Shown here: piece by piece, positions 6,534 through 20,367 of the stretch
Layout: each line of letters starts with the position of its first letter
Position numbering within the stretch: position 1 is the first letter of the stretch
Source: Enterobacteria phage vB_EcoM_IME341
Reading direction: 5' to 3' (one strand)
DNA: 64,000 nt
Sequence record: MH051917
Made by a program: the position numbers and the translations under genes
Notes under the pieces: model-generated
Seen by the model: only the letters and a program-made list of their open reading frames with translations
Databases searched by the model: none
Told to the model about the DNA's origin: nothing

Positions 6534-6988
6534 TGAAAACTGAAGATTTTGCTCAAGGTCTATACGTTGCTGCAAAATTCTCTGAATTAACTTTAGATGC
6601 GCTGGAAAACCTTCAGCGCACTTTAAAGGTTCCTAATCCAGTTCCTCGTGAAAAATTCCATTCTACAATCTGCTATTCAAGAGTCAACGTTCCATACACC
6701 GTTGCATCCGGAAGTTTTGAAGTTGCTTCGACCGGACATCTTGAAGTGTGGAAACATGGTGATTCTCCTGTCCTGGTATTGGTTCTCAATTCAGAGTATC
6801 TTAAATGCCGCCATCAGTATGCTCGTACCTTAGGTGCTACGCACGATTTTGATGATTATACCCCTCATATCACCCTGTCTTATAATGTAGGACCACTTAG
6901 CTTTAGTGGAGATGTCCAGATTCCTGTTGTTTTAGACAGAGAATATAAAGAACCCTTGAAGCTCGACTGGGCCGAGGATTTAAAATGA
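6533..6988 (+). CDS. 57B: gp57B, 2H phosphoesterase superfamily protein
   Basis: 151 aa; two H-x-T/S motifs (HSTICYS, HITLSY) typical of LigT-like 2H phosphoesterases; position after 57A. Confidence 0.65.
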
Positions 6989-7194
6989 AAACCTACAATG
7001 AATTCTTAACAGAAGCAATGGAATCCGCCTCTTCGGTGGCAATAGAGGTTTCCTGTACTCCTGAAGAATTTAAAGAAAGCCTGAAAGGTATAAATTGGCT
7101 TTCAGGAGAGTTATCTAATGGGGTTGCCTACTTCTTTGGCCCTCAATCAGATATAGATAGCTGGGTCTCTGAAAATTCTTCATGGCTAAAATAA
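6985..7194 (+). CDS. internal protein (IP) with capsid-targeting sequence
   Basis: N-terminus [11 protein letters not shown] matches the T4 IP capsid-targeting sequence MKTYQEFIAEA with gp21 site (L/I)xE; sits after 57B as ipI does in T4. Confidence 0.7.
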
Positions 7195-7205
7195 TTTAAA
7201 AAAGG

Positions 7206-7234
7206 TGTTTACAAGGTCTATAGGCATGATACTA
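7206..7234 (+). promoter_or_regulatory. early promoter cassette (GTTTAC -35, 17-bp spacer, TACTAT -10)
   Basis: gtttacaaggtctataggcatgatactatagacctatcaa; spacer contains inverted repeat aggtctatag/ctatagacct. Confidence 0.6.
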
Positions 7235-7272
7235 TAGACCTATCAAAACAAACTAACCAAACGGAAATCAAA

Positions 7273-7497
7273 ATGAAAACTTATCAAGAATTTATTACCG
7301 AAGCTAAAAAACACGAAGACCAACTGCCGGTTGTTACAAAAACCTTTGACGGTTCATTGGCTGATTTTAAAAAAGTCCCTAGTGATAAGCTCGCTAAATT
7401 GACCGGGAGCATCGGCGAAAAAGACGGCAAGGTCACATTTTCTGCTCAAGGCACCGCTAATCTTAAAAAACTTTTGAAAGCCGCTGGCGCTGAATAA
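7273..7497 (+). CDS. internal protein (IP) with capsid-targeting sequence
   Basis: N-terminus MKTYQEFITEAKK; 74 aa. Confidence 0.7.
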   Translation: MKTYQEFITEAKKHEDQLPVVTKTFDGSLADFKKVPSDKLAKLTGSIGEKDGKVTFSAQGTANLKKLLKAAGAE

Positions 7498-7499
7498 AA

Positions 7500-7772
7500 A
7501 TGAAAACATATCAAGAATTTATCGCTGAATCTATTCTTAATGAAGAAGTAAAAATTAACAAATCTGTTAAGACTATGATTGATAATATAAATCATCTCTA
7601 TAACATCGATTTGACTAATCATGTAACTTTAGGCAATAAGCGAAACTTTTTTGTATTTGATACTTCAGAACTCGACCAGAATCAAATTAACAATATTGAA
7701 CGTTTTGCTAATGAAAAAGGGCTGCGTCACGAAACGGCTGGTTATAAAAAGTATGCAATTTATTTAAAATAA
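7500..7772 (+). CDS. internal protein (IP) with capsid-targeting sequence
   Basis: N-terminus MKTYQEFIAESIL; 90 aa; tandem to previous IP. Confidence 0.7.
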   Translation: MKTYQEFIAESILNEEVKINKSVKTMIDNINHLYNIDLTNHVTLGNKRNFFVFDTSELDQNQINNIERFANEKGLRHETAGYKKYAIYLK

Positions 7773-7774
7773 TT

Positions 7775-7804
7775 GTTTACAACGGGCTCTAGTGATGGTA
7801 CTAT
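7775..7804 (+). promoter_or_regulatory. early promoter cassette
   Basis: gtttacaacgggctctagtgatggtactatagccctatcaa. Confidence 0.55.
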
Positions 7805-7840
7805 AGCCCTATCAAAACAAATGAGTGATTGGAGAATAAA

Positions 7841-8026
7841 ATGAAACGTTGTGAATTAATTAGAAATGTTACTGCACTGGCAGCCGTTACTGCTTTTGGC
7901 TTTAGTATGTTTGCAGGATTCATGCTCGATATGCTTTCAACTTCCGAGAATATAATCTCTTTAGTAGTGGCATTTTTAATTGGTTCAATCTCTTTCGTAA
8001 TGGATAAAATCTCTAAAGGTGAATAA
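7841..8026 (+). CDS. small membrane protein
   Basis: 61 aa from ATG after SD GGAG in the cassette 3' end; hydrophobic; ORF-track start 7829 is a TTG inside the shared leader. Confidence 0.55.
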   Translation: MKRCELIRNVTALAAVTAFGFSMFAGFMLDMLSTSENIISLVVAFLIGSISFVMDKISKGE

Positions 8027-18059: not shown

Positions 18060-18292
18060 GTATTGCAATTTATATTAAATCTGAGTCATGTGATTCTTAT
18101 CTGTATTCCTATGATACCGGAACGTCAGAAGAAAAAATCAAAGAAGATTTAGAAAGCGACTTGGATATGTTCCGACCTATTTCTGATTATATGGTCCAAA
18201 TATCTGATAGTGAAAGTCCGTCAACAGAAACGTGTGTTGAAATTATTATACGAGATATCTTTAAACAATCATGGGACCGAGACAATGAGTAA
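18056..18292 (+). CDS. small acidic protein
   Basis: 78 aa, ATGA overlap with upstream gene. Confidence 0.45.
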   Translation: MSIAIYIKSESCDSYLYSYDTGTSEEKIKEDLESDLDMFRPISDYMVQISDSESPSTETCVEIIIRDIFKQSWDRDNE

Positions 18293-18734
18293 GAAAGCTA
18301 AGGAATTATCGGCAGGTATTTTGTTCATGACTGTTGATAAAGAACTGGTCATGGGGCGTGTAACAGGCTCTCGTAATCCAGAGAATATGCGTCATAAATG
18401 GGACATTCCTAAAGGTCATGTCGAACCAGGCGAAGAGCCTATTCAAGCGGCAATGCGTGAAACCGAAGAAGAGATTGGATTCACAGCATACGATCCTGCG
18501 TTCCTGAAAGACCTAGGTGAGTTCAAATATTCAAGCAATAAGAATCTACATCTGTTCTTATATACGGTGCCTGTGGAACACGAGCAGTTCAAGAATTGCA
18601 AATGTACGGCTTACCATACGTTCCCTGACGGTCGCACGATTCCTGAATTCGATGCGTTTGCCTTGATTAAACGTCCACAATGGGAATATGTCATGGGTAA
18701 GTCGATGTTTAAGGTTTTAGATTCGCTCTTTTGA
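18285..18734 (+). CDS. nudE: Nudix hydrolase (T4 NudE / e.1-like)
   Basis: Nudix box GHVEPGEEPIQAAMRETEEEIG; immediately upstream of lysozyme gene e as T4 e.1. Confidence 0.8.
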   Translation: MSKKAKELSAGILFMTVDKELVMGRVTGSRNPENMRHKWDIPKGHVEPGEEPIQAAMRETEEEIGFTAYDPAFLKDLGEFKYSSNKNLHLFLYTVPVEHEQFKNCKCTAYHTFPDGRTIPEFDAFALIKRPQWEYVMGKSMFKVLDSLF

Positions 18735-18742
18735 TATAAATA
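18735..18742 (+). promoter_or_regulatory. T4-type late promoter TATAAATA for gene e
   Basis: Exact TATAAATA 23 nt upstream of e start, overlapping the 5' arm of an RBS hairpin. Confidence 0.6.
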
Positions 18743-18764
18743 CCTCCTATACTCAGGAGGTATT

Positions 18765-19259
18765 ATGGATATTTTTGATATGTTACGTCAAGACGAAGGT
18801 CTTGATTTAAATCTTTATAAAGACACCGAAGGTTATTGGACTATTGGGATTGGCCAGTTGATTACCAAAAACCCTTCAAAAGATGTTGCTCGTGCCGAAC
18901 TTGATAAGCTTATGGGCCGGGTTTGCAACGGTCGTATTACTATGGCTGAAGCTGAACAACTCTTTAACCGATCGGTTGAAAATGCTCGTAGAGCTATTCT
19001 GCGTAATCCTAAATTGAAACCTGTTTATGATGTACTGGACGAAGTTCGTCGTTGTGCTTTAATTAACATGGTCTTCCAGATGGGTGAAGCAGGTGTAGCT
19101 GGGTTCACTAACTCTTTACGTATGCTCCAACAGAAACGTTGGGACGATGCGGCAGTTAACCTGGCTCAATCCCGTTGGTATAAACAAACTCCTAATCGTG
19201 CTAAGCGCGTGATTTCAACATTTAAAACAGGTACTTGGAAAGCATATGAAAACTTATAA
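18765..19259 (+). CDS. e: endolysin (T4 lysozyme, gene e)
   Basis: 164 aa; [54 protein letters not shown]; highly similar to T4 lysozyme. Confidence 0.95.
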
Positions 19260-19548
19260 TGAATTTATCACTGAAGCCCGCGTAACCGCAGGTAAATTAG
19301 AAGCCGCTGTAAATAAAAAGGCCCATTCATTTCATGATTTGCCAGATAAAGACCGTAAGAAACTTGTAAGCCTTTATATTGACAAAGAGCGTATTCTCGC
19401 TCTCCCGGGCGCTAATGAAGGTAAACAGGCCAAGCCTTTGAATTCTGTCGAAAAGAAAATTGATAACTTTGCTTCTAAGTTTGGTATGTCTATGGATGAC
19501 CTTCAGCAAGCGGCTACCGAAGCAGCTAAAGCAATTAAAGGTAAATAA
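19246..19548 (+). CDS. internal protein (ipII/ipIII-like) with capsid-targeting sequence
   Basis: N-terminus [13 protein letters not shown]; 100 aa; between e and denV where T4 has ipIII/ipII. Confidence 0.7.
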
Positions 19549-19551
19549 CAG

Positions 19552-19580
19552 TTTACTTTTACAATAGCTGTGATATAGTG
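19552..19580 (+). promoter_or_regulatory. early promoter (GTTTAC / TATAGT)
   Basis: gtttacttttacaatagctgtgatatagt; downstream inverted repeat gtgttctc/gagaacac covers the denV SD. Confidence 0.45.
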
Positions 19581-19608
19581 TTCTCACACAAACATGGAGA
19601 ACACTAAA

Positions 19609-20025
19609 ATGACTCGTATTAACCTTACCTTAGTATCTGAATTGGCCGACCAACACTTAATGGCTGAATATCGCGAATTACCACGTGTTTTCGGTGCAGT
19701 TCGTAAGCATGTTGCTAATGGTAAACGTGTTCGTGATTTTAAAATTAGCTCTACTTTTATCCTTGGTACCGGCCATGTTACTTTCTTTTATGATAAGCTT
19801 GAATTTTTACGTAAACGTCAAATCGAGCTTATAGCCGAATGTTTAAAACGTGGTTTTAATATCAAGGACACTACGGTCCAAGACATTAGTGATATTCCTC
19901 AGGAATTCCGTGGTGACTATACTCCACACGAAGCTTCTATTGCTATATCTCAGGCCCGTTTGGACGAAAAAATTGCACAGCGTCCTACCTGGTACAAACA
20001 TTATGGCAAGGCTATTTACGCTTAA
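19609..20025 (+). CDS. denV: endonuclease V, pyrimidine dimer DNA glycosylase
   Basis: [35 protein letters not shown]... nearly identical to T4 endo V; ORF-track start 19594 is an upstream in-frame ATG. Confidence 0.95.
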
Positions 20026-20067
20026 TTAAATCCGTGATAGAATACTTCTATCAACTTAAGGAATAAT

Positions 20068-20367
20068 ATGAAAACTTATCAAGAATTTATTACAGAAGCC
20101 AAAGCTCCTAAAGCATTTCAAATTGGAGTTCAAGGCAATTTAGACCAAGAATATGTTGATGCTATTGTAGCAAGCCTCGGTAAACAGGGTGTACAAGTGG
20201 ATTTTGTTGATTTTACCAAAGGTAATACTTTTAATATTGTTACATCTAAAGGTTCTTTAGCTAAAGTTAAAAAGGCCTTTGGCGTAGCACAAGCATATGA
20301 AATCGACCACTCCGAATTGGAAAATAAAGGTCGCCAGAACACAATTAAAGGTTCTGGTTCTTTCTAA
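20068..20367 (+). CDS. internal-protein-like protein with capsid-targeting sequence
   Basis: N-terminus MKTYQEFITEAKAP; 99 aa. Confidence 0.65.
   Translation: MKTYQEFITEAKAPKAFQIGVQGNLDQEYVDAIVASLGKQGVQVDFVDFTKGNTFNIVTSKGSLAKVKKAFGVAQAYEIDHSELENKGRQNTIKGSGSF

Follow-up and report, generated by a model that had tools for sequence, protein, structure and literature searches.

Which proteins does a T4-like phage carry into its host together with its DNA, and what would they do there? The question is raised by six genes in a stretch of 64,000 nucleotides (nt) from Enterobacteria phage vB_EcoM_IME341 (sequence record MH051917; the whole stretch is called the window hereafter, and positions are counted from its first letter), whose products all begin with nearly the same ten residues. 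These residues resemble the capsid-targeting sequence (CTS) of the T4 internal head proteins (Ips), and an original prediction had taken the six open reading frames (ORFs) for an enlarged set of injected anti-defense proteins. The analysis presented here leads us to consider it very probable that the six ORFs encode T4-type internal head proteins which are injected with the DNA and most of which block type IV nucleases of the host. The tag, its cleavage motif, the family membership of the proteins, the genomic anatomy and the cassette boundaries were obtained directly in this work. The sequence of the window places the phage among the T4-like coliphages of the genus Dhakavirus (JS98/IME08 group). 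The region is a mosaic when set against the deposited genomes, with best matches to IME08, EcWhh-1, WG01, QL01, JS10 and others at 93-99% over parts; the closest relative is IME08, with 98.9% identity across the 54% of positions 1-25000 that match.

A common N-terminal tag with a cleavage motif

The six tagged ORFs are the following:

6985-7194, plus strand: CTS-bearing ORF, 69 residues (mature protein about 59 residues, isoelectric point (pI) 4.1); phrog_23867, "unknown function"
7273-7497, plus strand: Ip8-family gene, 74 residues (mature protein about 64 residues, pI 9.5); phrog_8765, "internal virion protein", E 7e-27
7500-7772, plus strand: Ip9-family gene, 90 residues (mature protein about 80 residues); phrog_7673, E 3e-56
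10384-10848, plus strand: CTS-bearing ORF, 154 residues (mature protein about 144 residues, pI 9.5); phrog_2280, "unknown function"
19246-19548, plus strand: ipII orthologue (Ip2), 100 residues; phrog_7857, E 5e-54; annotated as ipII in IME08
20068-20367, plus strand: Ip7-family gene downstream of denV, 99 residues; phrog_2667, "internal head protein", E 5e-43

All six are present on the plus strand at the places where they had been predicted, and all open with MKTY(N/Q)EF(I/L)(T/A)E. The T4 proteins IpII and IpIII start with MKTYQEFIAE and IpI with MKTFKEFTST; since the tag of T4 IpI deviates, the agreement with the T4 CTS that had been proposed is an agreement with the IpII/IpIII form. As had also been foreseen, each tag holds one (L/I)xE motif, at residues 8-10 (LTE, ITE, IAE, LTE, ITE and ITE); the next residue is A, S or Q. 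Y4 and F7 are invariant, and (I/L)8 and E10 are kept in all six. In the T4 CTS, targeting depends critically on positions 4 and 7, and processing by gp21 on positions 8 and 10, and the ten CTS residues are enough to package foreign proteins (PMC9026906). The mature proteins would have masses of 6.4-15.9 kDa; four of the six are basic (pI 9.0-9.7), Ip9 is near neutral and the product of ORF 6985 is acidic.

A chance origin of the tags is excluded by the number of matches. The degenerate DNA pattern ATGAARACNTAYMANGARTT occurs six times exactly and once with two mismatches in the 64 kb, against a mean of 0.14 in dinucleotide-preserving shuffles, none of which (0 of 100) reached seven. The match with two mismatches, at 14919, lies inside another ORF and was dismissed. 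A relaxed scan at the protein level, on both strands of the whole 64 kb, gave no seventh candidate with an (L/I)xE site; the start MKNYLDF... at 32630 belongs to a 297-residue protein that lacks this site and was rejected.

In pairwise comparisons among the six genes, nt 1-30 are identical at 21-29 of 30 positions, whereas the agreement over nt 31-90 and over the 30 nt upstream is no better than chance. BLASTP with the parts following residue 10 detected no significant similarity among the six, in line with the earlier view that their cargos are unrelated. The conservation of the first 30 nt, which the original prediction had placed at the nucleotide level, is thus real as an observation, but it is a by-product of peptide conservation and codon bias. 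Indeed, synonymous positions within the tag differ (Thr3 is ACC, ACT or ACA, Tyr4 TAC or TAT, Phe7 TTC or TTT), codons 8 and 9 are variable, and under the codon usage of the phage the uniformity of the AAA and GAA codons does not reach significance (P about 0.10 and 0.06, respectively). The synonymous-site pattern gives no support to the first 30 nt being a recombination or regulatory element at the DNA level beyond coding needs. The CTS-coding stretch does coincide with one homology breakpoint, that of ORF 10384 against IME08, which is described below.

Family membership of the cargo domains

The families of ORFs 19246, 20068, 7273 and 7500 are labeled internal head or virion protein in PHROGs. 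Comparison with the three T4 proteins, which had been proposed as a check, separated ORF 19246 from the others: it is 94% identical to T4 IpII across the mature part (90 residues), whereas the other five cargos have no significant similarity to T4 IpI, IpII or IpIII. ORF 19246, which has 14 nt in common with the end of gene e, also has the same length as T4 IpII, the same kind of tag and the same e-denV neighborhood. It differs in that its tag is not MKTYQEFIAE and in that the cytosines of its phage are probably arabinosylated, those of T4 being glucosylated. The T4 proteins IpI* and IpIII are inhibitors of GmrSD-CT596 and GmrSD-ECOR17, respectively; the CTS, the (L/I)xE site for gp21 and the loci 57B-trna.4 and e-denV are common to T4 and to the window, but the cargos in the window are unlike either protein, and an ipIII orthologue, present in AnYang, is lacking in the phage studied here.

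Three further proteins belong to families among the Ip6-Ip9 set of the polymorphic ip loci of T-even phages (K3, RB15, RB32 and the VR phages). The product of ORF 7273 is Ip8 (homologues in 106 records, named ip8 in VR5 and "internal virion protein" in many), that of ORF 7500 is Ip9 (191 records, named Ip9 in IME08, RB32 and VR20) and that of ORF 20068 is Ip7 (282 records, named ip7 in VR20, VR26 and VR5). The Ip7 of RB32 is 50% identical to the latter and is found in the ipI locus, whereas the gene lies beside denV in the window. In the product of ORF 7500, LNE15 forms a second possible cleavage site.

The cargo of Ip9 also occurs without the tag. It is a free protein of 66-74 residues in unrelated phages, such as Seuratvirus KS_A3 (46% identity; locus 1492-1716), and the C-terminal domain of proteins of 683-861 residues, such as gp130 of Agtrevirus ChubbyThor (locus 1-1743). 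Both groups are phages which we take to have hypermodified DNA. The existence of this cargo with and without the tag, together with the exchange anatomy described below, shows a modular architecture composed of a delivery tag and a swappable cargo. A Pfam search gave nothing above threshold for any of the six ORFs, and sequence searches of the PDB with four of the six gave nothing meaningful.

ORF 6985 and ORF 10384

The two remaining families, phrog_23867 and phrog_2280, carry no functional label. Homologues of ORF 6985 were found in 27 phage records, and the gene is often left uncalled, as in IME08, JS98 and JS10. They retain K2, E6, F7 and E10-A11, and the E10-A11 junction is invariant. The AlphaFold2 (AF2) model of the protein (pLDDT 80.8) has a compact beta-alpha-beta-beta-alpha domain, and a Foldseek search against BFVD matched it with the VR7 protein "Ip6 putative internal head protein" (E 7.5e-4, TM 0.71, 22% identity), a match that owes part of its score to the common N-terminal helix. 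The product of ORF 6985 is best read as a divergent Ip6-like protein. In the PDB, Foldseek returned generic, non-significant small alpha/beta domains for this model, and T4 IPI* was not among the best 50 matches listed.

ORF 10384 has homologues in 509 phage records, and all the matches listed are "hypothetical" or unannotated. The phrog_2280 family is thus present in more than 500 T-even-type genomes, has no T4 counterpart at this site and bears no internal-protein label among the matches listed; an earlier mention of it as an Ip in the literature is possible. The homologues in Tequatroviruses have an extended tag, MK(T/S)Y..FLNE..L(T/N)E-A, with two candidate cleavage sites. One of them, RB32ORF133c, is 72% identical to ORF 10384, is likewise located between tRNA-Arg and e.8 and has the same kind of flanking direct repeat, being annotated as "flanked by 34 bp imperfect direct repeat". 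At the same site IME08 (orf129, 205 residues), EcWhh-1 and AnYang have a phrog_2280 allele of 202-205 residues which is 26% identical to ORF 10384. The AF2 model of ORF 10384 (pLDDT 72.7) has an N-domain of three helices (residues 13-67), which a linker rich in Pro, Ala and Lys connects to a long helical hairpin, and the Foldseek matches of the model in the PDB were generic, non-significant ferritin-like helices. Structure prediction of the cargos, which had been suggested, thus yielded an Ip6-like fold for ORF 6985, but no function can be claimed from the fold of either protein.

Genomic setting and exchange of the ip genes

The gene order is T4-like: genes 1, 57A and 57B are followed by three of the ip genes, trna.4/.3/.2, tRNA-Met, an endonuclease-like ORF, tRNA-Arg, ORF 10384 and e.8, and farther downstream by nudE, e, ipII, denV, ORF 20068 and vs.8. 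Five of the six tagged ORFs lie within the variable ip loci, 57B-trna.4 and e-denV/vs.8, and ORF 10384 occupies a third variable site, between tRNA-Arg and e.8. The repeats and promoters found around these genes, together with the IME08 site used for comparison, are as follows:

7188-7278, plus strand: PeSL-like element, copy 1, just upstream of the Ip8 gene (repeat family D1), with a promoter-like site at 7208-7235
7757-7847, plus strand: PeSL-like element, copy 2, just downstream of the Ip9 gene (repeat family D1)
10996-11086 and 16474-16564, plus strand: further copies of the 91-nt element (repeat family D1, four copies in total)
10314-10342, plus strand: left copy of a 29-nt direct repeat, with a terminator-like hairpin and T-run (repeat D10, copies 93% identical)
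10962-10990, plus strand: right copy of the 29-nt direct repeat (repeat D10)
5030-5291 and 5201-5231 of the IME08 locus: counterpart site of the ORF 10384 region
18735-18742, plus strand: TATAAATA, an exact copy of the T4 late-promoter core, upstream of e and ipII; the plus strand of the window has only four such copies

In each copy of the 91-nt element an early-type promoter, GTTTACA-N16-TACTAT, overlaps with a hairpin (GGTCTATAG...CTATAGACC); a ribosome-binding site and then a start codon come next. Two of the copies bracket the Ip8 and Ip9 pair. These elements fit the PeSL promoter/stem-loop cassettes, whose published consensus is TTTACW-N17-TAYWAT and which have been proposed to drive shuffling in the hyperplastic regions of T4-type phages (PMC4122927). 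ORF 10384, for its part, is bracketed by the 29-nt terminator-like direct repeat. Compared with IME08, DNA homology extends from the upstream region to nt 25 of this ORF, ends at 10408 and resumes at 10963, in the right repeat; the break at nt 25 corresponds to the end of the tag-coding part. The ip genes lie in exchangeable cassettes, beside 57B, between tRNA-Arg and e.8 and around e/denV, bounded by CTS-coding sequence on one side and by promoter/hairpin elements or terminator repeats on the other. Such boundaries make a swapping of cargos through recombination possible.

The gene that precedes the first cassette is itself an anti-defense gene:

6533-6988, plus strand: gene 57B, Acb1, an anti-CBASS cyclic-nucleotide nuclease (the Pfam family PF23474 is matched with E 1.2e-58 and 197 bits, the cut-off being 27)

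The acb1 gene lies immediately upstream of the first ip gene, and its stop codon overlaps the start of ORF 6985 (ATGA), so that acb1 and the three ip genes form a contiguous anti-defense block. This adjacency supports an anti-defense role of the ip genes. In RefSeq records of relatives, 57B is labeled "RNA ligase".

Proposed mode of action and DNA modification

In T4 the CTS directs the protein to the scaffolding core and the propeptide is removed by gp21; about 360 copies of each Ip then remain inside the head until they are ejected along with the DNA (PMC9026906, PMC3012670). By the same steps, the ten-residue CTS would bind each of the six proteins to the gp22/gp67/gp68 scaffolding core during prohead assembly, and the gp21 prohead protease would cut after Glu10, at (L/I)-x-E, freeing a mature protein of 6-16 kDa that would stay among the packaged DNA in probably tens to hundreds of copies. 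IME08 encodes gp67, gp68, the gp21 protease, gp22 and gp23; the head module of the phage studied here lies outside the 64-kb window. At infection the proteins would be ejected into the cell together with the DNA, and their action would therefore precede any phage gene expression. The most likely job of most of them would be to bind and block type IV enzymes of the GmrSD/BrxU type that recognize hypermodified cytosines, with one inhibitor per enzyme variant.

The original prediction had credited one T4 Ip with blocking a restriction system; this falls short, as Silas 2025 reports that Ip1, Ip2 and Ip3 of T4 each inhibit a distinct GmrSD type IV enzyme, without cross-protection, and proposes that the accessory genes of both ip loci all target variants of the GmrSD family (PMC12373910). 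A diversified, injected anti-defense arsenal is the published view (PMC3012670, PMC12373910). Similarity to an Ip with proven inhibition (T4 Ip1-3) was found for ORF 19246 only and was not significant for the other five. Its 94% identity to T4 Ip2 gives ORF 19246 a specific predicted target, while those of the other five are assigned by analogy only; most likely, it blocks the BrxU/GmrSD-ECOR21 type of enzyme, as T4 Ip2 does.

The DNA to be protected had been assumed to contain glucosylated hydroxymethylcytosine, and this part of the earlier view probably has to be given up. Homologues (93-99%, by tblastn) of IME08 gp039-gp044, which correspond to the RB69 orf045c-053c cluster, lie at about 52120-56828 of the window; those of gp039-gp043, at about 52.6-56.8 kb, were counted as the RB69-type arabinosylation cluster. 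In a 2026 study the RB69 cluster was described as the pathway for arabinosylated 5-hydroxycytosine, with Dhakaviruses among its carriers (PMC13326640). In IME08, the syntenic region lacks both a-gt and b-gt. The presence of the cluster, together with the absence of the two glucosyltransferase genes from the IME08 region, suggests that the DNA of this phage is probably arabinosylated and not glucosylated. The inhibitor model is left intact by this change, since RB69, whose DNA is arabinosylated, is cut by GmrSD and protected by its own IPI (PMC6024577).

Weighing the alternatives

Several points weigh against the reading of the six proteins as injected inhibitors of type IV enzymes. The packaging, cleavage, injection and targets of the six are what we infer, and only the Ip2 cargo has a relative whose activity has been tested, the Pfam, PDB sequence and PDB fold searches having remained empty. 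The acidic product of ORF 6985 differs from the T4 Ips, which are basic. The exact late-promoter core TATAAATA is found near e/ipII only, the other genes having a one-mismatch version or none within 260 nt, and ORF 7273 is preceded by an early-type promoter. Finally, T4 IpIII also affects head assembly (PMC9026906), and anti-defense need not be the sole role of such proteins. This last point leads to the possibility that all six are packaged but serve mainly a structural purpose, such as neutralization of DNA charge, assembly of the prohead core or DNA packaging. The basic character of four of the mature proteins would suit such a purpose, and in T4 the IpIII mutants show slower head assembly and smaller bursts, and the internal proteins contact the phosphates of the DNA in the head through lysines (PMC3012670, PMC9026906). 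A structural role alone, however, fails to predict unrelated cargos, cassette exchange, alleles of 26% identity and the variation in presence and absence among close relatives, and it does not agree with the acidic and near-neutral character of the products of ORFs 6985 and 7500. Moreover, T4 Ip1-3, including the basic Ip2 and Ip3, are specific GmrSD inhibitors (PMC12373910), and T4 devoid of all three Ips is viable on laboratory hosts (PMC9026906). We regard a mainly structural function as very improbable.

It appears equally hard to uphold that some of the six, above all the products of ORFs 6985 and 10384, are unpackaged cytoplasmic accessory proteins whose tag is a leftover of recombination or an aid to translation initiation. 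This would explain why the 6985 and 10384 families have no internal-protein annotation (for 10384, among the matches listed) and why no exact late promoter is found near either gene, and the untagged Ip9 cargo of other phages indicates that cargo domains need no packaging. Against this, the tag is kept across divergent homologues while synonymous sites and cargo change, which argues that the peptide is under selection; all members of the 6985 family share the E10-A11 junction, the predicted 6985 fold matches a named Ip6, and in T4 the ten CTS residues suffice for the packaging of foreign proteins (PMC9026906). A different matter is the target of proteins that are indeed injected, which might for the most part be not type IV restriction but RecBCD-like nucleases, BREX, retrons or abortive-infection sensors, or which might serve an Alt-like takeover. 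The known targets are limited to those of Ip1-3 (PMC12373910), the restriction landscape may differ for DNA that probably contains arabinosylated 5-hydroxycytosine, and the neighboring acb1 gene indicates a locus not limited to anti-restriction. We nevertheless consider this rather unlikely: all three of the T4 Ips tested hit GmrSD variants, the authors of that study extend the conclusion to both ip loci (PMC12373910), and the arabinosylated DNA of RB69 is a GmrSD substrate as well (PMC6024577). Injection of the six proteins, followed in most cases by the blocking of type IV nucleases, thus remains the reading we favor.

Size of the repertoire among relatives

The set of six had been described as an expanded repertoire. 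This holds with respect to T4, which has three CTS-type ORFs, but not with respect to other relatives: RB32, a Tequatrovirus, has five (Ip5, Ip9, Ip7, ORF133c and Ip4), IME08 has six, at the same three loci, and the Dhakavirus AnYang has eight, including the IpIII orthologue and two further unannotated ones. The six tags of the window are an expansion over T4 but typical of the genus. These numbers were obtained by counting tags directly in the relatives, because a scan of IMG/VR with the strict DNA pattern, which found up to five per genome, misses variant tags; a relaxed CTS scan of the same database gave mostly noise among the matches listed and was set aside. The two further ORFs of AnYang, of 119 residues (starting MKTYQEFITES) and 132 residues, are annotated as hypothetical and lie in its e-denV locus, on the minus strand, at 2116-2475 and 4005-4403. 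Polymorphic ip loci of T-even phages were reportedly described by Repoila in 1994.

Outside the T-even phages, a likeness exists to the Dar proteins of phage P1, which counter restriction after having been packaged in the capsid and injected together with the DNA. They are unrelated proteins of an unrelated phage family, act against type I restriction and are not known to have the MKTY..EF tag or gp21-type processing.

Neighboring features

Some further features of the region were recorded. An Rfam scan of positions 5500-21500 detected two tRNAs and nothing else. Between tRNA-Met (9243-9319) and tRNA-Arg (10010-10084) lies the endonuclease-like ORF mentioned above, whose 3' end shares 38 nt with the start of tRNA-Arg; the counterpart position in T4 is that of the GIY-YIG homing endonuclease segB. 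The features are the following:

9376-10047, plus strand: endonuclease-like ORF, 223 residues (phrog_15137, "endonuclease"), with a weak, below-threshold Pfam match to Phage_endo_I and an N-terminal Cys/His-rich motif
10085-10313, plus strand: about 230 nt of non-coding DNA between tRNA-Arg and the hairpin preceding ORF 10384, of which 10149-10204 and 10240-10269 are 93-95% identical to RB32; this is the position of the small stable RNAs rnaD and rnaC in T4, and no Rfam match was found
13395-14637, plus strand: five small paralogous ORFs in tandem, 65-96 residues (phrog_899 and phrog_4882, "unknown function"; no Pfam match)

The five paralogues end in a motif of the type W-(V/F/Y)-(S/P)-S-S-x-x-C (WVSSSAMC, WVSSSSEC, WVSSSYEC, WFSSSMSC and WYPSSC), and the DNA at the junctions between them is conserved (repeat D4).

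Implications

The concept of injected internal proteins has long been known for T-even phages, and four of the six genes are already annotated in near-identical public genomes, so that the practical gain is modest. Mildly new are the two CTS-bearing families that are missing from annotations or unlabeled in them, one of which defines a third polymorphic ip locus. Entering with the DNA, the Ips would be the first counter-defense of the phage. A catalogue of the Ips of a phage with probably arabinosylated cytosines would guide the choice of inhibitors to be set against type IV enzymes, and it would also help to account for the range of wild E. coli that serve as hosts; therapy collections often contain phages of this kind. 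With arabinosylated DNA, the host nucleases that matter may not be the ones examined in work on T4. It is conceivable, though we would stop a little short of calling it probable, that phrog_2280 is an overlooked and widespread Ip family at a third polymorphic locus and that, together with the Ip6-like protein and Ip7-9, it neutralizes nucleases recognizing arabinosylated 5-hydroxycytosine. If this were true, phrog_2280 and the uncharacterized Ips would be ready-made probes for finding the nucleases that recognize the new modification.

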